Shown here: positions 75 through 30,469 of the stretch, piece by piece | Layout: each line of letters opens with the position of its first letter | How positions within the stretch are numbered: position 1 is the stretch's first letter | Program-made: the position numbers and the translations under genes | Notes under the pieces: generated by a model | What the model was told of the DNA's origin: nothing | Database searches by the model: none | Seen by the model: only the letters and a program-made list of their open reading frames with translations | Source of the DNA: a virus | Virus genome (UHGV): UHGV-0143082 | DNA: 32,928 nt | Reading direction: 5' to 3' (one strand)

Positions 75-3023
75 TTAGTGCTTCCCTTCTATTAAGTCTA
101 ACCTAGCTTTTATTCTTTCTATTTCTCTGCGCTGCCATGCCGCCTCGATATAGAATAAGAGATCAGGTCTGACCCCCCATCTAGATCCTGCTGGCGTTAT
201 TTCAACGCGCTCAATGATGTCTTCCATTACCATCACTGGATTATCATCCTCATCAACAATGATGCTCCCGTCATTATCAGTCAGCGGTATTTCCCTTTGG
301 CCAGTAATGACGTCATCATATACTGCGGGATAATCGTCATAGCAAAGAAAGGCATAGCGGCATGTTGTGCTTTCTTCTTCCATGAGTCCGTGAGAAATAA
401 GAACATCACGAAGTTGCTGCGCGATTACACCATGATGTATCCTCGCCCCTTCTTCCCCCTTTATAGCGACAGCGTTCAGCCATTTATAAGCGATATACCT
501 GACGTCACCCCAGGCATCCAGCAATGCTTCGTCAGGAGAGACCGCCTCTGTCTTTAATGTTCCGTCACTGGTAACCACAGGATTGGAGCCAAGATAAACT
601 GTCGAGAACCTGTTTCCCGGACCACCAAGAGCATTTACATTATCAAGATAAGGTTTAACATCTCCGTTCTCAAAAAGATGTTCGAGTGCGTTATATACCG
701 CGCGACGTGGAGTACTGCTTCCGGAACCATGCAACGTTATCATTGCGCCATCTGCTGAAGACGTTGTTTCACCGCCGCTAACGATTAATCTCTGAGCGGT
801 AACATCATCAGACGGTACTTTCTTCGCAATAATGGCGTAATTACCCTCAAGTTTGACTTCCGCGCGAACTTGTCCTGATGTACCTGCATGGACAGTCAGT
901 GACTGGACGGCAACATCATCTGTGAAATCAACGGGTACAGGAACCGTCCTCACGCCTGACGTCGACATAAAAGTAGGAAGCGTTCTGTTAGGAGTGGCTC
1001 CGTAGACAAAATCCCTTGAAACAAATTCTTCCTGTTTAATTTTCACCCTGAAACAATACAAATCAGCCGGGTGACCATCGTGAACATAAGGATATTTTCT
1101 GTTGTTATCCCCTATGCTCCATGGGTTTAGAAAGTCTTCCCCACCGAAAATGTAGTACAGCCAGTTGTCTTTGATACAAACTGAACCAACACCAACCGCA
1201 GAGTTAACTATTCCGCCCTGATAAATCTGATCAGTAACATTAACCCACTCTACATTATCCAGACTCCACTCATTGACGTTAACTCTGGTCATAAATGTTC
1301 TTGGATAATTTCCTGCATAACGGTTATCAGGTTCTCCTCCTTCCCACTCACCAAATGCGCGCTCACTGCCAAAAATAATCAGCTCATCGCCAACTTTGGC
1401 AAAAGGAAGGTTTGAGTGATGAACATTATTTGGGAAGCGAAGAGAATTCCATGATGTACCTAAATCAGAGCTTCTGTGCAATGAACTACCGGGTTGAGTA
1501 CTTAATGTCCCCCTGGTCGTCAGATACAGAATGCCATCATAATATTTTACACATGGCTCAGATGCATTCGCCTCATATTCTGCAGGTATGCGTCTGCGAA
1601 CAAAGCTACCAGGAGAACCGAAAGCATCAGAGAAATAGAGTATCCCAAGCTCGCGTGGACCAATATCACCATTATGGTAGCCAACAGCAAAACTGTTATC
1701 GCTAATCGTCGCAAAACTGTGAATCTCAGTAACAGGAGTGCTTCCGTCAACAAAAGAAGAAATAGTTCCAAGACTGGTTTTTCTCCATGGTGACGAGTGA
1801 AATGATGTACCAAAACTCCAGTATCTACCCTCGTTATTCTGATCCACATCCTGAGTATTTTGCGTCGTAACTGTAAAAGTATTTTTATCAATAACAGTAG
1901 TCACCGTCATATTCCCGGTAACACCTGTAACACCAGAGTTTGAGAAGTTGACAAAATCACCAGCAAATAATCCGTGATCAGTAATGCGAATATAAGCGAC
2001 TTGCTGATTTGCTGCTTTCGTTATACCACCATAAACGCGAAGGCTGCGACTCATTGGACGATCCCACAACTCTGCAACCTGCAGTTTATTTCCGCGCACG
2101 GTCCGCGTCTCAATTACAGCAAAAAGGCGATTTCTGACAACCCCCATACTCATGCAGTGATAGTTAACTGTGGGATAGTTTTCATGTAAATCTGTAAGCC
2201 ATTCCGGCGTTGTCCAGGTCTTCCCGTCATCTCCTGAGCGAACCCATGCAACATGGAGGTTATTTACACCATGGCGGTCTCCAGCCATAAAAGGCGCATA
2301 GATGACATTGTCATATACAAACGTTTTATCCTGCGTCCAGGCGTTGTACCACGGTGTATCTGTAATTTTAAATAACTCTCCTTGGATAAAATCTTCAGAA
2401 GCATAAAAAAGAGGCTGACCCGGTATTCTCTCAAATAAAAAACGAGCATTTTTAAATCGACTGACATCTGGAAGAGTTGATACTTTAAAAGTAAGCCCTC
2501 GCCCATCTATCTTTTCACCACCTGTTGCAACAGAAAGTAATTCTGATAGAGCTGATGTATCATCATGAACACCATCACCAATAGCCCCCCAACCTCTTAC
2601 ATCATAACTGTCTCTCCATCTTGCTATCTGAAGTTTTGGGTATTTATTCGCTCCATCTGGGTCTTCTAATTGCTGTCGTAACTGATCAGGATCATACTTC
2701 AGCACATTCGGAAAATAGAACTGCTGCACACCGTACGCATCATAAACAGCCATAGAATGGCCCTGTACAGTAACGAATTTGGCAATCTGTCCGTTATATA
2801 CCGGATATCCAGCAGCGTTAATGATGATTGGTTGCGATACAGGAACGTGAGAGCCGTCTTCGTTCTCCACATAAACCTGAATCTGGTTTTCAGGATTTAC
2901 AGGGTCAGTGTCAATTTTACCGATATAAATTTTACCATTGGCTACGGCTTTAAAAGAACGAGCCATAGTGAAGAGTTGCGAAGGCATACTCACTACAACA
3001 TTGGCATTTATTGAATCTGTCAT
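75..3023 (-). CDS. Tailspike protein: P22 gp9-like head-binding N-terminal domain fused to endosialidase-like body with C-terminal intramolecular chaperone domain
   Basis: 982 aa; N-terminal ~115 aa closely resemble P22 tailspike ([45 protein letters not shown]); two Asp-box motifs SGDDGKTW and SSDLGTSW; C-terminal region resembles the self-cleaving chaperone of endosialidases. Confidence 0.8.
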
Positions 3024-8176: not shown

Positions 8177-9561
8177 TACTGCCCTCCGAGATATTTGCTA
8201 ATTAATTCGTCATCGGACAATTGCTGTTGAGGTTGGCTATCTCCATAACTTGAGGAAAGAAAACGTTTTGCCGCAGAGTTCAATGATTCACCCTTCTTAA
8301 CATCCATCCCCATGATGTTTCGGTTGCGATCAGATTGTCCAGGGCTGCCGTTTGCACTCATCCACTCTGACCTAAACTCGTTGAACTTCGCGTTATTACT
8401 TTCCATTTTTGCCATACCCCTTAACCATCGAGCCATGACCATTGGATTATCCGTTTCGCTTGGAATGCCTTTCCTTGCAAACTCAATATCCTTATCAGAT
8501 GCAGGGCCGGGAGGGAGAAGCTTGGTTGCCTGCGCATTGGCTAGTTGGTTGAATCTAATCCGCATATCTCGGAGGTAGTTATCTTGCCCCGTAAGCTTAG
8601 AGAACATATTTTCAGCGTTACCGAACAAACCAGGAGTTGGCTTCTCCCTCTCCAGCGTGTCAGCGAGCGTTGTCATTGAATCGGCAGCATTACGACTAGC
8701 TGCCGCATCACCTGCTGATTTTTCTATAGCCTTTTCCATGTTCACTGATAATTTTGGCGCAGCATTAATAAGTTCCTCGGCCTTTTTTTGTGCCTGTTGT
8801 ACTTCAAAACCGAATTTCTGCTTATCAAGTGCCAGTCTTTCTGCTGCAAGTCCGTGTCCGGTCATTGCAGACTGATAGGAAAGGTTTTGCCCCCTAATAG
8901 CCCTCGCATTCGTCATGTCATTATTGCGAATGGTTTCGTTAATTCTTTGCTGCTCCTGCTGGCGACCAACCATCTTATCCTGAACAGCAAACGCCTTTTC
9001 TGGTCCAAGCGCACCGAGAGACATAGTAGTCAGCATGTGTGATAGCTGCTCTGGATTCTGGATACCTGTCTGAATCATCCAGTCAGCATTCGCCCCCACG
9101 CGATTTAACCTGTCCTTGTTGTCAGTAATGAATTTACTGTAGGCTTCCGGTCCCTGAGAAAGAGCGACGTTAGCCCTCATGGCTAAATCGCCCATATCGT
9201 TGCGTTGCTGATCATTAAGACCTGAAAACGCCTGTTGTGCCTGTGCAACAAACGCTGGATTTTCCTGGGCAAACTTAAATAGTCCCGATGGATCACCAGA
9301 AGCCCATGCATCAGCGTGAACCTTATTGAACGCACTAATCGCTTTCTGTTGCTGTTCCTGATTGTAAATATCAGCAACTCCAGCCAGACCACGTAACGCG
9401 GTCAGACCAACGTTATTTGCACCTGAGCGAGCCAGTTCATTGTTTTCGCGGATCAGACCAAGCGTTGCGTTAATGTCGCTTGCCTTTGGCGCATTCTCAT
9501 TTTGCGTACCGATGCCAGCCAGAAAACCACCAGAATTAATACCCTGTTGCCACGTAGCCAT
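8176..9561 (-). CDS. DNA ejection protein, P22 gp20 homolog
   Basis: 461 aa; synteny gp7-gp20-gp16. Confidence 0.8.
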
Positions 9562-15780: not shown

Positions 15781-17982
15781 TTACTGCTGTGGTTGTTGCT
15801 GAGTTGATTTTTGCAGGATGCTGCTGATGTCCATGCGCTGCGCATGGCCCTGTGCCTGACTTTTCAGGACAAGCTCTGCATCAGCACGGGCATTGTCTCC
15901 TTGCTGTTGCTGGAACTGTCCGAGCAGTTTCAGAGCCTCGCGGATATCAGATTTCTGCTGGCTATCAGCAGATGCGAGGATTTTCACAACGTTTGCCGCT
16001 GCAACCTGAGCATCAGTCTGTGCCTGGAATGCTTTAACCTGAATGGCTGCCTGCTCGTTCTGCGCTTTCTGCAATTCAGCCTGACCAGCAAGAAGCTGAC
16101 CTTGCGCAGCAACCATAGCCGGATCTGGCTGACTGGCCTGTTGTTGTTTCGCCTGCTCAACCATCTGCTGTTCTTCTGGCGTTCTCGGCTTGATAACTCC
16201 AGACAGAAGCAACTGATTGCGGTTGTATTCTTTAAGGTCGTCCATCCCTTCGCCGTCCATATTGTCGAGGATCATCGACGATACAAGGTCGTGTTTCGAC
16301 GTTCCTGGCGGGATAAGTGCCAGCATGGAAAGTAACGACTTAACCGTTGCGTCACGGCGAGTAGCGAACGACTGACCGACATCGACAGTCACTTCATAGT
16401 TACCCTGAGAAAGGTCGTTAAGCGCGATAACCTGCCCTGTCTGACGGTCAACCACTTCACCAGTCATCAGCGCCACGTCATCGCTGCCGTCCTCATTAAC
16501 GATACGCATCGGCGTATCACTACCATAGACCTCACGTGCCATAGAAAGCCACACGACGCCAGCACGGCGCATGGATTTAGCCATGTTGTCCATGTAGATA
16601 TAGGACTGCGTGTCCATCCGGTTAAAGATGCTATCAACGGTATCGGTAGCGACGTTGCTCGGCATGTTCTCAAGCTGCGACGCACCTGTAATTTGCTGAA
16701 TAGCCGTTCCGGTGTACTGCAATAGCCCGGCAAGAGCTGGCGGCATTTGTGTCGGAGGTGTATAACTGCTGACCTGAGCCTGCGCAGTAATATCTCCGTT
16801 TTTGTTTTTCAGACTGACCATCGGCAGGAACGCCGGGCGCTTTTTGTTGCGCTCCGCCCAATGAGTGGCAAGAGGACCAGGAATCATGTCAACATCAACT
16901 ACAGGAATGCCATCACCGCCAGCCTGAGTAGCGTTATCTGCAATCATGGAAACCATCAGGTTCTCAAGACGCTGTGCATCCATCGCTTTTGCTGCGTGGC
17001 CTTCTATTCGCTCCTGATTATCAACAAATGAGCGACGCCCATATACCGGGATGAGAGGAATATGTTCGCCCGGAATACGCTTCGGTTCTTCCAGCCATTC
17101 AGCGCCAGACAGAAGACCGCAATAAACTCTGCGTTTCTTCACTGTCCGCTCACCAATCAGTTCGAATGCGCCATCGGTCAGCTCGTCGACAATATCTTTG
17201 ATTTGCTCTTCATCATAGATTGCCGTTTCTCCGCTAACAGGGTTGCGCCATGCCGTGAGCTTCACCTTCTCTATGCGAACTTCGTAGTAGCGACCAACAT
17301 AGATGGCATCTGGCGTTGACCAGTCATATTGAGTGCCAGTGTCATCACGAGAAAGGCTTGCCGCGATGGAATCAGGGTATTCAGCCTCGAACGCTTTAGG
17401 CGTCATGGAGAACATTTCCATAGCCCACATAGCATCAGAGCGGTCATATTGCTTGCTGTCCTGATCGAAGAAAACGCATGTCGCTGGGTCGTAAACAGGA
17501 AGAAGGCTGATGCGTCGCTGCTCGTTACTTGGGTCCATTTCATCTTCGTAATCGGCACACATGCGGAAACAACCGAATCCGCCCGTTACAGCATCATCAA
17601 ATGCGTTATCACACGCTTCGCCACCGGATGTTTCCTGATAGTCAGCGCGGAATTTGCCGTTCATCTTTTCGGCTAACGCTTCCGATGCCTTGTCATCCTT
17701 CGGCCTGAATTTAACGCTGATGCGATTCTGTCGATACTCGCCAATGATGCGATCACATTCACGGGCAATCTTATTCAGTTCAAAGCGCGGATAATGCTCA
17801 AACCTGCCTTCATCAAATGAGTAACCAGCGTTTGTGCTGCCTTCCCACTGTGCGCCGGACACCCGGACGAAACGTTGAGCCTCAATAATCTGCTCTCGCA
17901 TATCCTGCGTTGCTGACCAGGCATTATCAAAGTTGCACAGCACCTTGCGATGCCAGTCAGTCATCTTTCTATCATCAGCCAT
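15781..17982 (-). CDS. Portal protein, P22 gp1 homolog
   Basis: Extensive similarity to P22 portal including the C-terminal barrel region (PETPEEQQ...DPAMV..AQGQLLAGQAELQKAQN...RMDI); ATG at 17982 overlaps terL stop as TGATG. Confidence 0.9.
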   Translation of the reverse strand: MADDRKMTDWHRKVLCNFDNAWSATQDMREQIIEAQRFVRVSGAQWEGSTNAGYSFDEGRFEHYPRFELNKIARECDRIIGEYRQNRISVKFRPKDDKASEALAEKMNGKFRADYQETSGGEACDNAFDDAVTGGFGCFRMCADYEDEMDPSNEQRRISLLPVYDPATCVFFDQDSKQYDRSDAMWAMEMFSMTPKAFEAEYPDSIAASLSRDDTGTQYDWSTPDAIYVGRYYEVRIEKVKLTAWRNPVSGETAIYDEEQIKDIVDELTDGAFELIGERTVKKRRVYCGLLSGAEWLEEPKRIPGEHIPLIPVYGRRSFVDNQERIEGHAAKAMDAQRLENLMVSMIADNATQAGGDGIPVVDVDMIPGPLATHWAERNKKRPAFLPMVSLKNKNGDITAQAQVSSYTPPTQMPPALAGLLQYTGTAIQQITGASQLENMPSNVATDTVDSIFNRMDTQSYIYMDNMAKSMRRAGVVWLSMAREVYGSDTPMRIVNEDGSDDVALMTGEVVDRQTGQVIALNDLSQGNYEVTVDVGQSFATRRDATVKSLLSMLALIPPGTSKHDLVSSMILDNMDGEGMDDLKEYNRNQLLLSGVIKPRTPEEQQMVEQAKQQQASQPDPAMVAAQGQLLAGQAELQKAQNEQAAIQVKAFQAQTDAQVAAANVVKILASADSQQKSDIREALKLLGQFQQQQGDNARADAELVLKSQAQGHAQRMDISSILQKSTQQQPQQ

Positions 17983-19478
17983 CATCCAACTCCGCAAGGT
18001 ATGTTGTAGCTTGAGTAATCAATCTCTTTAGGATCTTTGATGTCTCGCATCTGTATTGCAAAACGCCTCATCATGTAGCCATAGCGAACAGCAGAAAGGA
18101 TGTCGTCATTTAGCTTGACGATCTTCCCGTTCTCATCGCGGTGATACAGGCGAAACTCTTCAAAGAATGGCTCGCAGGTGTTAAATACCTTGAAACGACC
18201 GTCGAGCATCATGTCGCGTATCTCTGCTATCCCGGGTTCGACCGCATTACCTCCATCAGGCCATGTTGCATGATCTGGCAACATGTCGAACCCAGCGTCG
18301 GCGTATTGTTCCTTGAGCTGAGCGCCGCCTCCCTTTTCGTGCTGATGCCCGTCATGAGGCCAAGCCGTAGGGGTGTTTTTGCTCCATGCTTTAACAGCAC
18401 TCCATGCCTCTGTCGCCTTCTTCTGTTTGGCCTTCCAGACGCGAGAAAGATAAATCACGTCCTCGTCTTTATCCCACCAAAGCTGGATATGTGCCTGTGG
18501 GTGATCCCATCCGAAGTCCATTGCATTGATGACGTAGAAGTGATCAGGACACTCGAACGGCTGACACTTAATCGTCTCTTCCGGTATCTGGAAGATTCGA
18601 CCACTACCCATCGTAGGAATACCGCGAGTACGCGCCTCTCTCTCATGCTCAGGATAGGATGCGATGATTTGCTCTTTCTGCTCGTCGGTATAGTGCTCAG
18701 CGTCATAGATGGTCATGTTGACCACTTTCTGCGACTTGCTGGGATTCTTCAGGAACTTGGTAACAACGTCAGACATCCCCATCAGCGGGGTAAACGTCAG
18801 AATTGAGAATTGCCCGTATTTGTTGGTACGGGTAAGACCTTCGCCATAAATGCTGTATGGTGGCTCTTCGTCAAACCACACGCCGTGGATTGTGTCACCC
18901 TGCCAGCGAGCACGGCCTTGCGAGTATGGTTTGAAGTAGCAGATTGAAATGCCATCTTCAACGCCATCAGCCGTGTGATGCTTAACCAGAAGGTGATCAA
19001 CAAGGTTCGGAAAGAAAGGAGACTTCTTCCAGCTAATGATGTCTTCTTTCGGTATGGAACCGTAGCCTGGCTCGTCATTCTCTTCGATACGACCGCACAG
19101 GATGCGTTGAGTCGTTTTGGTTACCGTCTCGTTTGTCTCGCCGCCAATCCAGAAGACAACAGGCTCATAGAAACGCTTACCTTTCCACTCACCGCCATAT
19201 TTACCATCAGCAGGATAGCCTTTTGTGCCCGGATAACGCCCGGTAAGGTGAAACGCGACTTCAGCAGCACCAGTAAATGACTTACCAAGCTGGTTACCAG
19301 CCATAAAACATCGCTCTGGATAGTCATGCCCGGCGTCGATGAACTCACGCTGTTTGCTGTATGGCGTAAATTCATATAGCAGGTGTGTGTTCCGGTAGTT
19401 TTCTTCTTCTTCGAGTAGCTCGAGCAATTCGATTTGCTCTTCGTCGCTCAGGTTATCAAGAATCGCGTCCAGTTCCAC
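17982..19478 (-). CDS. Terminase large subunit, P22 gp2 homolog
   Basis: 498 aa; ATPase and nuclease regions; synteny terS-terL-portal. Confidence 0.9.
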
Positions 19479-19944
19479 GGTTGAATAGCTCCTTGATACG
19501 AGAGCGTCGCTTATCGCGATCTCCCTTATCAGGTGTCACGTCTTCAACTTGCGACTGCTCTTTGAGGCCCAAATCACGGGCGATGATGTTAGCGTTGAGA
19601 AGGTCAGCGGCTGCGCCAGAGAATTTCTGGTCGTAGATGATGTCTTCCGCTCGTGATGTGACGTCAGAAAAACCTTCCATTGACCGGAAGGTTCCCCATG
19701 TTTGCCTGGTGATATCAAGGAAGGTACACAATCCTGAAATAGTCATGGCTCGCATCTTAGGGACATTAGCCTTAATTATTTCTCCCTGATATGAAAATAC
19801 CTTACCCTCCCATAGCGGGTTATCATCAGCCCACTCGAAGTATTCACAACAAGCAGCCCACAGCGCCTCAGGCGATTCGAATTTAGGATTTCGCCCATGA
19901 CTACTGCGGGCCTCCCAAAATCGGTTGCCCTTTGGTGCTGCCAT
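19456..19944 (-). CDS. Terminase small subunit, P22 gp3 homolog
   Basis: From ATG 19944 the protein begins [38 protein letters not shown] and ends ...[14 protein letters not shown] as in P22 gp3; 162 aa. ORF-track start 19980 is an upstream in-frame alternative. Confidence 0.85.
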
Positions 19945-20022
19945 ATGATTATTTCCCTTCTGCTTGCTTATCCCATTCATCGCGGAATTTGGATGGGTTG
20001 TCGAAACCTTGAGTTGCCATGT

Positions 20023-24390: not shown

Positions 24391-24989
24391 GCGGCCTCAC
24401 TTCTGCTGTTTCGCAGGTCTTTGAGTTTCTGCTGATACTCCGCCTTGATGGCCCTGCACTCTTCGACAGTCCAGCGATGGCGGTTATGGTTTGATTCGAT
24501 TTCGTCTACTGCTTCCTGCCCGATGCGGCTAATCAGTTCGACGCGATACGGAACGAGATTCCCGCTTTTGTGCTGGTTGCACACCACGCATTGCTTGTGA
24601 ATATTGCGTTCATCAAATCGGAGTTGAGGCGCCGCAGCAGTTGTCCGGTAATGCCCGGCATCCCACTGAGCAGACGTGAGCGTTCCGCACGAGATACATG
24701 GTAAGTCGCGGTCTCTTTCTCTGATGAAGGCGTTTACAGCTTGTTGGGCTTGTTTAATCCAGTAACTGCGGGGCTTTAAGGCGAGTTTTCGAATCTTAAG
24801 TTTATCTTTCTGTTTCTGCTCCTCTCGTCGTCGTTTCTTCTCTGCTGCCTTTTCCGCTTTTTCGCGTTCTTTGCTTCGTCGTTCGAGTGCTATCTTGGTT
24901 CCACAAATCTCATTACACCAATATTGATTTTGATATTTTGGTATAAACCATTCATTGCAACATTTACATTTCCTTCGATAGATTCGCAT
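24387..24989 (-). CDS. ninG: NinG (Rap-like recombination endonuclease), N-terminally remodelled
   Basis: From ATG 24989 (strong SD AAAGGAG): [15 protein letters not shown]... then near-identical to lambda NinG from [18 protein letters not shown] onward. Confidence 0.8.
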
Positions 24990-25530
24990 AAGTGCTCCTT
25001 TCGTTGCCGGAAAAATCACCGTAATACTTATCTCGGGCTTCTTCAGCAACTAGTACCGCTAACTCCAGATCATCAAAGCATCCGAAGTGTTTACTCTTGC
25101 CATGGAAACCTAGCCTAACATTCCATTTTTTCTGTCGTTTGTGCCAAGTAACTCCTCTGCAACCTGATTTGCTATTCTTTCGGATCCTTATATTTCTTGA
25201 ATTTTCTATTGGCAGGCATTCTCTTAAATTTTCTGGCCTATTGTCGGTCCTAATTCCATTAACGTGGTCAATTTGACCAGCAGGCCAACGATTATGAGTT
25301 ATGTAAAAAACTAAGACGTGAGTTTTATATCTACGCCCATCTATCATGATCATTGAATAACCGTTGGAATCAAAAGTTCCAGCAACACTATTTAATGCTA
25401 TCCTTCCCTGAGTGGGAACTTTCCATCTAAATACCCCGGTAGATTTATCGAAACTTAGTAACTCAAATATCCTTTTAACAGTTAAATCTTCTCTTTTACG
25501 GTTACATCGTCTTCGCGCTGGTTTAGCCAT
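24964..25530 (-). CDS. HNH homing endonuclease with AP2-like DNA-binding domain, inserted at the 5' end of ninG
   Basis: 188 aa; HNH motif [16 protein letters not shown]; AP2-like [17 protein letters not shown]; first 29 nt identical to the lambda ninG start (MAKPARRRC) before an AT-rich insert. Confidence 0.75.
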
Positions 25531-27129: not shown

Positions 27130-29022
27130 TTAATACTCCGTCACGTTTTCCTGTCGCCACGCCTCGTCATATTCCGATTTCGGCATATTGGCGATGTAGC
27201 TATATGGCGATCCTGATTCAAGTTGCAGGAACTGGTGCGATTGCTCGTCAAGGAACAACGGGACACCACCTTCCCAACCTTCGCCGTTACGTTGTTTTTC
27301 AAGCATCAAAACAGATGCCGGAGATGCCAGTAGCTGTTCGTCCTTCTCTGACATCTTTTCACCACTCTGAACTCTCTGTAACGCTCTCTCGCGAGCCTTG
27401 TTACGCCAGATGATGAAAAGGTTGTCTGTCAGGTCTGTTATCGCTCCAGAGCCTTTTACGTCCATTTTCCCGGTTGGTTTTTCTTCGCTGTCTCCTTTTC
27501 TGGAGTGAGTAACGAGAATGACGTGGGAGTTTGTTTTGTTTTTGAAGTCGCAAATCGAGTCAACAAACGCCTTCTGCCCGTTATAGTCATCGTCGCCTAT
27601 GCCACATTTCATCAGGCTGTCGATGATGAATAACTGGATCCCGTATCGGCGGCGAGCGTAGTCGAATATTTCGATCAGCCTGTCGGCTTTCGCCGTTCCG
27701 GTCAGGCCAAACACCCAAAGTCTTTCGTCATAAAATTTAAATGCAGAGTCAATTTCCAGCACTGGCGGCATCTTGCAGCACGTCGCCTGACGGGTAAGGC
27801 GCTTAAGGAGAATACCAGGCTTCAGCTCAAGTGACGCGATGCACGTCTTCACACCCTGACGCATTGCCTCAAGTGCCATATGCCCGACAACCTCCGTTTT
27901 TCCGTGACCGTTCACACCATTGACCAGCGTCAACTCGGCCTCACGGAACTGGAATTTATCTGCCAGAGATTCCCACGGTGGATTAAACAGATACTGCTGC
28001 TTGCCGTAGAAAGCGTTGATAGTGTCCTGGTAAAACTCTCGCGCGCTGTAGAGTTCTTCAGGATCGAAGTAGGATGCCGTGCCGATGTACTGCCAGATTT
28101 CATCCTCGGTAACACCGTTCATCAGGCATTCGTTGATGTCTTTGTACGGCAGAGTAACAAGACGGCAACGATGTTCACCGAGTCGGCTTGCGATTTCCCT
28201 TGCGGCTTCACGACCAACATCATCAACGTCCATCGAGATGAATATTTCCTCAAACCTGTCGAGGTTGTGATACTCAAACTCAATCCACTGCTGCTTAGCG
28301 CCTTTCCCGCCACCAAACGGTACGGATAACGCCGAGATGCCGTATTGCGCATAGCTCATACAATCAATTTCGCCTTCGCAAAGTACAACCGCCCTCACGC
28401 CAGCGTCCAGAGCCTGCCATCCGAACAGACAAGGTTCGCAATCACCTTCTGCCATAATGACTTTCTTCCCGCCCGGGCGCTCAGTGCTGATTCGCTTTAC
28501 CTGCAACAACTCACCATCGCGTTTGTACGGAAGCACCAGAGCATCCAGTTCTCGCTCTCCATTCCACACCTTGCCGCTGACAACCTCGTAGCGCTTTACG
28601 ACTTCTGGCGATATGCCACGCGATTGCAGGTACTCAAGATGGGATTCTGTTCTGGTAACGTAGCGGGCAATTTTCTTGCGATCAGGTCTGGAGAATTTCT
28701 TCTCACGTCTGGCATCGAAATGGTGATCGTCATCCTTGATACCGAGAAATGCTTTCGCTTCCTGCATAGCCTGATGCAGGTTAATTCCTCGACATGCCAT
28801 CCACAAATCAAGCATGTCACCGCCGTCTCCCTCAGCGAAATCAGCCCATTTTTTCTTGCCGCTAAGGTTGACCTTAAGGCTGTTTCCCTTGTCACCGTTG
28901 ACGTTACCGGCAACCCACTCATGCCCCTCTTTCTTGCCGTTTGGCAACAGGTGCGGAGCCACCCTGTCAACCTGCGCCCAAAGCAGGTCGCTAAGTTCTG
29001 ATGGACTCAAAGGTGCCTCCAT
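27130..29022 (-). CDS. Bifunctional primase-helicase replication protein
   Basis: 630 aa; TOPRIM-like acidic segment (VLCEGEIDCMSY) in the N-terminal half, helicase-like C-terminal half. Confidence 0.75.
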   Translation of the reverse strand: MEAPLSPSELSDLLWAQVDRVAPHLLPNGKKEGHEWVAGNVNGDKGNSLKVNLSGKKKWADFAEGDGGDMLDLWMACRGINLHQAMQEAKAFLGIKDDDHHFDARREKKFSRPDRKKIARYVTRTESHLEYLQSRGISPEVVKRYEVVSGKVWNGERELDALVLPYKRDGELLQVKRISTERPGGKKVIMAEGDCEPCLFGWQALDAGVRAVVLCEGEIDCMSYAQYGISALSVPFGGGKGAKQQWIEFEYHNLDRFEEIFISMDVDDVGREAAREIASRLGEHRCRLVTLPYKDINECLMNGVTEDEIWQYIGTASYFDPEELYSAREFYQDTINAFYGKQQYLFNPPWESLADKFQFREAELTLVNGVNGHGKTEVVGHMALEAMRQGVKTCIASLELKPGILLKRLTRQATCCKMPPVLEIDSAFKFYDERLWVFGLTGTAKADRLIEIFDYARRRYGIQLFIIDSLMKCGIGDDDYNGQKAFVDSICDFKNKTNSHVILVTHSRKGDSEEKPTGKMDVKGSGAITDLTDNLFIIWRNKARERALQRVQSGEKMSEKDEQLLASPASVLMLEKQRNGEGWEGGVPLFLDEQSHQFLQLESGSPYSYIANMPKSEYDEAWRQENVTEY

Positions 29023-29501
29023 GCGTTTCCTCTGCGGATTGTGGAAATTTGCATTTCACTCACTCCGTATTTAGTGGATAGTTCGCTTAGTTTCATACCA
29101 ACAGAATTCCTGATATCAATCACATCAGTTTCAGATAGGTTTGCCCTACCATTAAAAACTCCCTTTGCGCTTTTCAGTCCGATGCTAAAAGCATGTTTTA
29201 AATTCTCTGAGCAGGTACACCATTCCAAGTTCCAAATGGCGTTATCCGATTTGTCGCCGTTGATATGATTTACTTCTGGCTTGCAATACGGATTTGGGAT
29301 AAATAATTGAGCTACAAGACGATGAACTTTTAACGTCTTCTGAATCCCATCGGAACACAAAGTGACTCTTAGATAACCCTTGTTATCCGGAGATGGATTC
29401 AAAAACCTGCCTCTTAAATGTGAATAAACACGACCGTCTTTGGTTACAGAGTATTTACCCTCATAACCAGGTATATATTCTCCAACTTCAAGGCTCATCA
29501 T
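29007..29501 (-). CDS. HNH homing endonuclease (NUMOD4-like N-terminus plus HNH)
   Basis: 164 aa; YEGKYSVTKDGRVYS motif; HNH core VNHINGDKSDNAIWNLEWCTCSENLKHA; AT-rich gene; SD GAGGGA before ATGATG. Confidence 0.75.
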   Translation of the reverse strand: MMSLEVGEYIPGYEGKYSVTKDGRVYSHLRGRFLNPSPDNKGYLRVTLCSDGIQKTLKVHRLVAQLFIPNPYCKPEVNHINGDKSDNAIWNLEWCTCSENLKHAFSIGLKSAKGVFNGRANLSETDVIDIRNSVGMKLSELSTKYGVSEMQISTIRRGNAWRHL

Positions 29502-29608
29502 GATTCCCTCAGATTGAGATTTTTAAACCAGAAATCGACAAACGAAATACTTAACCAGCCGTGGTTATAACCAGCGACCAGTAGCGATTTGATTTTTGAT
29601 TTCATGGT

Positions 29609-30469
29609 TCACCTGTCGAAAAACACGTAGCCAGTTTTCGATACGGTGATTGCGGATGATGGTTTGGATTGTGGTTGAATAGTTTCTGGCTTCTCGTCGT
29701 TCCAGCGTTGACCGTTCAGGTAGCTCGATGGTAACAACCTGTCGAATCCGAACTGCTTACCATTCCTGCATGCGATGTCTTCTGCCAGCATCGTGGCAAA
29801 CTCGCTTGCCGTACCCCTGGTAGTTTTACGCCATTCCCTGAACTGTGTTCTGAATGCCGAAGCTGCGTTTTTCTTCCCGGCTTTCCGCATGCCTGCACAC
29901 CAGAATATTTCCTCGAATGCCTTGTCGGTTTCTTCGTGACGGTCATGTGATTTTTCACACTCCGTCCGAACACTTTCGGACATAGTGTTTTTATTATTTC
30001 TTTTTTCTTTTGTAATAGTTTCTTTTGTGTGTCCCTGTTTTGGTGACAGCGCTGTCACCGTTTTGGTGACACTTTTTGTCACCAATGCAGTGACATTATC
30101 ACCAGAGTAGTGACACCCTTCTATTTGCCATTCCTCGATGTTCTTGTTAGGCCCGATTTGCTGGCCTTCGCGAAGGATAACCTTCATCGCGATAAGCTCA
30201 TTCTTGGCCTTGTTTACCTTCTGTCTTGGCAGCCTGGTAATTTGAGCTAACTGACTATCAGAGATGCGATCCATCTTTTTACCGTAGCCGTATGTTTTAC
30301 GGCATATGGCGTGGGCAACCTTGCTCTGATTTTTCGTTAAATCTGCGCCGATAAGCTCTTCATACAGGGCATTTGCAAGACGGGTATAACCATCTTCAAC
30401 TTCTGCCACACGACGCTCCACAGGCCGTTGTGAAGGCCTTAAATGTGTTACGGTTGCAAGATTACTCAT
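29609..30469 (-). CDS. Replication initiator, lambda O-like N-terminal domain with divergent C-terminus
   Basis: N-terminal region resembles lambda O ([24 protein letters not shown]...[25 protein letters not shown]...GPNKNIEEW); iterons and AT-rich tract inside the gene. Confidence 0.75.
29981..30120. repeat. Replication origin: four iterons plus adjacent AT-rich tract inside the O-like gene
   Basis: Units GGTGACA-N5-TGTCACC at 30042-30059, 30065-30083, 30087-30103, 30107-30118 with about 22 bp periodicity; AT-rich 29985-30030 downstream in the direction of O transcription. Confidence 0.6.

Follow-up and report, generated by a model that had tools for sequence, protein, structure and literature searches.

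A probable I-HmuI-like homing endonuclease gene at the primase-helicase start in a CUS-3-like Escherichia coli prophage

The enzymes nearest to the one treated here are I-HmuI, encoded in the DNA polymerase intron of phage SPO1 (structure 1U3E), and I-HmuII, I-BasI and I-TwoI, all of which combine a NUMOD4 beta-sheet, an HNH/N core and a C-terminal helix-turn-helix (HTH) domain; enzymes of the I-HmuI type are site-specific nickases whose nicks fall a few nucleotides (nt) at most from the insertion site (PMC3428280). T-even phages have free-standing HNH genes (mobA to mobE), and 'intronless homing' is practised there by SegF/SegG: such genes are promoter-less cassettes between conserved genes, ride polycistronic messages, and are inherited via cleavage of a genome that lacks the homing endonuclease gene (HEG), recombinational repair and co-conversion of the flanks (PMC2988022). 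A more remote I-HmuI-like HNH/N nickase, NixI of the PLE satellites of Vibrio cholerae, acts in conflicts between mobile elements and is directed at replication (PMC9410903). Here we analysed a stretch of 32,928 nt from the virus genome UHGV-0143082 (hereafter the window), in which an HNH gene of 164 amino acids lies at 29007..29501, with an ATG start and a TGA stop (29007..29009); this gene and all window features named below are on the minus strand. Very probably, it is a free-standing, site-specific HEG of the I-HmuI-like NUMOD4/HNH type, located where the primase-helicase gene of a CUS-3-like (P22-like) Escherichia coli prophage begins, and we infer that its product cleaves DNA.

The window gene has the three-part architecture of the I-HmuI group, but differs from I-HmuI in standing free rather than within a group I intron, in its predicted target (the start of a primase-helicase gene rather than a DNA polymerase exon), in its host (a lambdoid, temperate phage of Enterobacterales, where that of I-HmuI is a lytic Bacillus phage) and in an invariant Asn (N78) that takes the place of D74 throughout the clade of the window protein. 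With the T-even genes it shares the promoter-less residence between conserved genes. However, the T4 enzymes typically cut hundreds to thousands of base pairs (bp) away, with long co-conversion tracts, whereas here the only linked flank polymorphism lies within 12 nt of the junction, and the cassette, placed precisely at a start codon, takes over the initiation region of the host gene and supplies a replacement. NixI, for its part, is a satellite effector against the helper phage that does not copy itself into its target; the likeness considered here is at family level. Literature searches brought up no account of HEGs dedicated to the O-primase junction of lambdoid phages; the HNH fusion in the epsilon34 paper is a different one, in the early-left operon. 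Both I-HmuI-like HNH enzymes and free-standing HEGs are a known kind, and what is noteworthy here is the capture of a start codon together with the very short linked flank.

We used a 2-kb query across the locus to survey phage records and 5426 complete E. coli genomes. It matched 44 phage records, including Sf101, mEp043, SEN22, ES18, epsilon34 and Stx2 phages, none of which has the HNH segment, and 296 of the E. coli genomes, five with the segment and 291 without it (1.7% occupied). Universal conservation of the gene at this position, with no empty-site alleles, is therefore contradicted. With the HNH DNA alone as query the same five E. coli genomes were recovered, the segment adjoining the toprim gene every time, and the best protein match among the phage records was only 48% identical. 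Some E. coli genomes hold up to four copies of the O-primase module.

Alignment of occupied and empty alleles, the comparison that the sequence-only reading had proposed for defining the insertion site, resolved the junction to the base. A 491-bp segment (29007..29497) is present in the window and absent in the empty-site alleles, and the 2001-nt locus query spans 1510 nt in the empty records; the boundaries can slide by 3 nt because TGA stands at either end of the segment. At the empty site the junction is clean and functional (AGT type: …GAGGGAATCATGACGCCAAGTGAACTTAGCGACCTG…), reading …CTGAGGGAATC ATG ACG CCA AGT GAA CTT AGC… (primase M-T-P-S-E-L-S), whereas the occupied junction, with the cassette ends marked by slashes, reads …CTGAGGGAATC ATG A/TG AGC CTT … GCA TGG AGG CAC CTT TGA/GT CCA TCA GAA CTT AGC…. 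The cassette is thus inserted directly after the ancestral primase ATG, so that translation of the HNH gene begins from the ribosome-binding site and start codon that once served the primase (29499..29510; GAGGG-AATC-ATG, identical before the primase ATG in empty Sf101, LR-24 and ES18). Replacement start signals for the primase can be read in the 3' end of the cassette (29008..29033): AGAGGA (29028..29033) stands five nt before an ATG (29020..29022), and GGAGG (29016..29020) stands five nt before a TTG (29008..29010), which overlaps the HNH stop as TTGA. Immediately beyond, the primase codons 2-4 (28999..29006) are recoded, with AGT CCA TCA here and ACG CCA AGT in the empty alleles.

A separate open reading frame (ORF) placed between genes and equipped with replacement primase start signals gives the HNH gene its free-standing status. 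A promoter and terminator scan detected nothing promoter-like or terminator-like within the cassette, and the single promoter-like site nearby (29619..29592), upstream of the cassette at the boundary of O and a small ORF, is no more than shuffled sequences give. An intron-encoded endonuclease of the group I kind was considered and rejected, since a scan of 28700..29800 returned no group I intron or other RNA family from Rfam at E<=1, and the HNH ORF lies outside the primase coding frame. One occupied allele (L007; NZ_CP083512.1, about 8468..8499, equivalent to window 29497) has a variant left junction, ATGACGCC/TGAGCC, which keeps four more of the original target bases, so that its HNH frame is without a canonical start codon; RefSeq starts the gene at ATA, and the old primase ATG now opens a 5-codon mini-ORF. 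This allele may be a decaying copy of the HEG or an alternative outcome of insertion.

The same cassette is found on many backgrounds. Occupied E. coli prophages differ in their repressor/cro types and nin regions, and the 11 distinct occupied alleles, IMG/VR loci included, are on different O and primase haplotypes. Occupancy is not tied to the haplotype of the flanks. The window primase differs from that of the empty LR-24 allele at 2 of 1869 nt, but from those of other occupied alleles at 12-26, and the primases of occupied L006 and empty Sf101 also differ at 2 positions. For 4 of the 11 occupied alleles, an AGT-type empty allele is identical over the first 1000 nt of the primase, while the nearest occupied neighbours of these four differ by 3-8 nt; for 3 of the 11, an empty allele is identical over 500 nt of the left flank. 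Among five alleles, 3 segregating sites were counted in the 491 nt of the cassette versus 51 in the 1869 nt of the primase (Poisson p=8e-4). An extended co-conversion tract common to all occupied alleles was sought, and none was found beyond 8-12 nt at the right junction; the sole flank polymorphism always linked to the cassette is the recoding at 28999..29006. The empty alleles with identical flanks carry AGT and not TCA. Therefore, they are not simple precise deletions of the cassette, and the cassette with its roughly 8-12 nt of flank has been gained, or replaced by conversion, repeatedly.

To count the two types of primase start in IMG/VR we ran two exact-pattern scans, with AGT-type starts counted only where enough upstream sequence was available. 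The HNH gene is present at 0 of 106 AGT-type but at 8 of 14 TCA-type starts (seven detected by tblastn, one as a short flank ending in the HNH 3' end; Fisher p=3.6e-9), although this p-value, like the one above, is indicative only, because the IMG/VR and RefSeq loci are related and not phylogenetically independent. On these sequence grounds, the AGT-to-TCA recoding is a candidate immunity or target-site difference: the enzyme may recognise the AGT-type sequence around the primase start, with TCA-type or interrupted sites refractory. By analogy, such a near-junction target would fit enzymes of the I-HmuI type and would fit the distant cleavage of the T4 free-standing enzymes less well.

The ORF itself, which had been described from the letters alone as AT-rich, 164 amino acids long and NUMOD4-like/HNH, was confirmed on each count. 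Its fraction of G+C (GC) is 0.40, against 0.46 in O and 0.52 in the primase, and both Pfam domains exceed their cutoffs: NUMOD4 (PF07463) at residues 9-48 (29358..29477; E=1.6e-10, 41.5 bits versus a cutoff of 23.4) and HNH_3 (PF13392) at residues 58-101 (29199..29330; E=2.3e-9, 37.2 bits versus 24.8). The protein matches phrog_59 'HNH endonuclease' in PHROG (1.2e-56), a search of NCBIfam assigned no family, and RefSeq already names the product 'NUMOD4 motif-containing HNH endonuclease'. An AlphaFold2 model built on 76 sequences has a mean pLDDT (the model's own per-residue confidence) of 95.3. I-HmuI (1U3E) was its sole significant match in the PDB by Foldseek (E=1.5e-9, full length, 167 columns) and again the sole match in a PDB sequence search (E=2e-13, residues 10-113, about 26% identity). 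The assignment to the NUMOD4-like/HNH family, and there to the I-HmuI-like enzymes, is borne out by sequence as well as by fold.

In the model, the NUMOD4 segment forms beta strands, as expected of an N-terminal beta-sheet DNA-contact module, and Pfam, the alignment to I-HmuI and residue conservation all identify the HNH_3 segment as the catalytic beta-beta-alpha-metal core. The C-terminal part (about residues 122-157; 29031..29138) is a predicted three-helix HTH DNA-binding domain, with helices at 124-132, 138-145 and 149-156; the C-terminal third has structural matches to SinR, ArdK, Cro and sigma region 4, and the region has weak Pfam hits to HTH_3 and Sigma70_r4. Four residues, H79, N91, N100 and H103, are invariant across the 76 relatives, H103 standing three residues beyond the HNH_3 call; H79 aligns with H75 of I-HmuI and N100 with N96, and experimental validation of the catalytic Asn equivalent to I-HmuI N96 has been reported (PMC9410903). 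Because of the I-HmuI-like fold, the HTH domain and the invariant catalytic residues, we expect the protein to be active and, as its family suggests by analogy, to be a site-specific nickase.

A protein search placed the HNH protein in a 99%-identical cluster of 121 member sequences and 221 contigs, and returned diverged relatives from Cronobacter (80% amino acid identity), a metagenome (75%), Enterobacter (72%) and Pantoea (62%), all of which are located between a Phage_rep_O gene and a Toprim_2 primase gene. The design of the junction recurs in them: the small ORF overlaps the HNH start, and the HNH C-terminus …AWRH(L/I) supplies GGAGG. A primase start, GTG or TTG, overlaps the HNH stop in the relatives from Cronobacter, Enterobacter and the metagenome, whereas the Pantoea type differs in having TAA followed by its own AAGGAGG-ATG. 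Pairwise dN/dS (nonsynonymous over synonymous divergence) of the HNH gene across the lineage is 0.10-0.17. Between the window and Cronobacter, dS is 0.66 for the HNH gene, 1.65 for O and saturated for the primase, and the lower value for the HNH gene suggests transfer between phages that had already diverged. Compared with the Enterobacter gene, the window gene is a mosaic, with the last ~140 nt 88-100% identical and the middle 60-77%; the 3' part compared (window 29007..29150 versus L013 5380..5525) comprises the HTH domain and the primase start signals, suggesting recombination within the HEG or an exchange of its DNA-binding end.

Sporadic occurrence, a clean empty site, many flank haplotypes, diverged relatives at the same site and the confirmed family thus support homing. 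We suspect that it would begin when an HNH-bearing phage and a related HNH-less phage share a cell, either by co-infection or by infection or induction in a polylysogen. The enzyme would then nick or cut close to the start of the primase on the empty allele (ATG ACG CCA AGT GAA...), and recombinational repair from the HNH-bearing copy would bring in the cassette with about 8-12 nt of flank. HNH-bearing alleles would be protected, as the insertion interrupts their site and its codons are recoded as AGT CCA TCA.

Several points, besides the relatedness of the loci mentioned above, weigh against homing as we have set it out. The cleavage site, the strand that is cut and the immunity of occupied alleles are all things that we infer. 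For free-standing HEGs of T4, cleavage at a distance of hundreds of bp from the gene is common (PMC2988022), and I-HmuI acts on intron-plus as well as intron-minus DNA, nicking both (PMC3428280); the target may accordingly be in another place, and occupied alleles may be only partly immune. Longer co-conversion tracts may also have existed and been eroded by subsequent recombination, which would leave the very short tract now linked. With its start codon lost, the L007 allele indicates that not every copy need be active, and the window copy has a private substitution at 29139 (AAC instead of the AAA of all other copies) that gives N121 just before the HTH domain, at a position where 55 of the 76 relatives have Lys; judged by sequence, this K121N change is a caveat on activity. 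Finally, 6 of the 14 TCA-type alleles are without the HEG, and the TCA recoding is therefore a natural allele and not necessarily an adaptation of the HEG.

One of these HEG-less TCA alleles, L028 (IMGVR_UViG_2713897197_000003), has the normal context of O and small ORF followed by ATG AGT CCA TCA, on a rather divergent primase haplotype (42-54 differences per 1000 nt from others); it could be a resistant allele, an ancestral one, or one that has lost the HEG precisely. In L020, L022, L024, L027 and L031, the small ORF is extended C-terminally and followed by about 130 nt of an unrelated, apparently non-coding spacer and then by ATG AGT CCA TCA, which makes a third allele type at the junction, TCA-type without HNH (L027 7860..8090). 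A remnant of the HNH gene was considered for the spacer of the L027-type alleles and rejected, since blastn and tblastn found no similarity apart from the shared flanks. The spacer might be the relic of another element.

The cassette might alternatively be a passive passenger, an inactive or domesticated leftover that ordinary homologous recombination shuffles at module boundaries without homing. Lambdoid and P22-like early regions are indeed highly mosaic, and the modules next to the cassette vary among occupied prophages; the primase 5' end, where modules join, has at least four allelic states, and one copy is without a start codon. However, only about 8-12 nt of flank are linked to the cassette, and yet it occurs on at least 11 haplotypes, several of which are identical to empty alleles over 500-1000 nt on either side; for a passenger, double crossovers close to the cassette, within tens of bp, would have had to recur. 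Diversity is also far lower in the cassette than in its flanks, and the ORF shows purifying selection and invariant catalytic residues, for which the passenger reading offers no ready reason, given that 98% of alleles are without the gene. We therefore regard passive shuffling as unlikely.

Another alternative is a main role as a weapon or exclusion factor: the enzyme would nick the replication module of HEG-less lambdoid rivals, and gene conversion would be a by-product. Nicking enzymes of the I-HmuI type do confer a competitive advantage or replication interference in other systems, as in marker exclusion by T4 (PMC2988022) and in the blocking of ICP1 replication by NixI of PLE (PMC9410903). 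The gene is moreover in the early-right replication operon, its putative target is the start of the rival's primase, and up to four module copies per E. coli genome make encounters between phages plausible. On present data such a role is mechanistically indistinguishable from homing, but the low frequency of the gene, at 1.7% of E. coli alleles, speaks against its bringing the phage a strong advantage, and exclusion as the primary function seems to us distinctly improbable.

The two roles might also be joined, a proposal that we make tentatively and hold to be doubtful. The gene would then be a long-lived HEG specialised on the start codon of lambdoid primases that doubles as a competition device, converting rivals and delaying their replication at induction or co-infection. 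Start-codon capture and the roughly 10-nt co-conversion tract would be adaptations for nearly cost-free invasion, and the HEG-less TCA alleles and those with the 130-nt spacer would be resistance or relic states in a cycle of gain, decay and loss.

A functional part in replication or packaging, for example as a nickase for the switch to rolling-circle replication or as a terminase-associated HNH protein, is extremely improbable: the gene is placed between two replication genes and translationally coupled to them, but about 98% of near-identical modules, including those of the viable Sf101, mEp043, SEN22 and ES18, are without it, which led us to reject an essential role in replication, and a terminase- or cos-associated HNH protein like HK97 gp74 was rejected because the terminase genes (17982..19980) of this P22-type headful packager are about 9 kb off and the domains are NUMOD4/HNH_3 of the I-HmuI family, not the CxxC core of the zinc-ribbon cos-associated HNH family (PMC3592412).

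The sequence-only reading had the HNH gene wedged between an O-like gene and a primase-helicase gene. Both neighbours were confirmed, but a conserved ORF of 35 amino acids separates the HNH gene from O. The lambda O-like replication initiator (29609..30469; Phage_rep_O at 1e-37) is the upstream flank. The 35-residue ORF (29498..29605; MKSKIKSLLVAGYNHGWLSISFVDFWFKNLNLRES) is a homologue of ES18 gp60, epsilon34 gp51 and g341c gp46 and annotated in those three phages; its protein is conserved in the Cronobacter, Enterobacter and Pantoea loci, and it is mostly left uncalled in RefSeq prophages. Its stop overlaps the HNH start as ATGA, through which it is translationally coupled to whichever gene comes next. 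The operon order of the early-right region (O, small ORF, HNH, primase) stays intact.

The invaded primase-helicase gene (27130..29010; Toprim_2 plus DnaB_C/AAA_25) encodes 626 amino acids from the TTG at 29010 or 630 from the ATG at 29022. A 16-nt overlap with the HNH gene, as originally described, holds for the longest ORF (27130..29022) with its ATG at 29022; it does not hold for the form that RefSeq gives in near-identical alleles, which starts at the in-frame TTG at 29010 and overlaps by 4 nt (TTGA). The shorter, TTG-initiated protein is favoured by homology, both to the primases of empty sites (M-T-P-S-E-L...) and to the allele of the Pantoea type (M-G-P-S-E-L...). For annotation, it is thus ambiguous whether the primase of an occupied allele starts at ATG or at TTG.

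The window as a whole is a P22-type prophage similar to CUS-3 and phiv205-1, with about 96.5% identity over 63-68% of the late region. It encodes a K1 endosialidase tailspike (75..3023) composed of a P22 head-binding domain, an endosialidase catalytic beta-propeller and a chaperone domain, and the prophage is K1-capsule-specific. Two homing-type endonucleases had been proposed for the early region, and in this respect the presence of a second free-standing HNH gene at ninG was confirmed (24964..25530; HNH_3 plus AP2, 188 amino acids); it is flanked by ninF and ninG, with an overlap into the start of NinG, and the site is empty in Sf101, in which NinF is directly followed by NinG. Further HNH genes occur in related loci: the nin region of L005 (TUM1880), a HEG-bearing E. 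coli prophage, contains four, fragments included, and additional ones are located elsewhere in each of L003, L007, L011 and L015.

The understanding of free-standing HEGs is most advanced for lytic phages of the T-even and SPO1-like kinds, and the locus described here provides a natural population example in temperate P22-like/lambdoid enteric prophages. Empty, occupied, possibly resistant and possibly decaying alleles are available at the level of single bases, and they suggest a compact target around the primase start. This makes the locus a testable system for how HEGs may invade essential replication genes without cost and feed the mosaicism at module boundaries.

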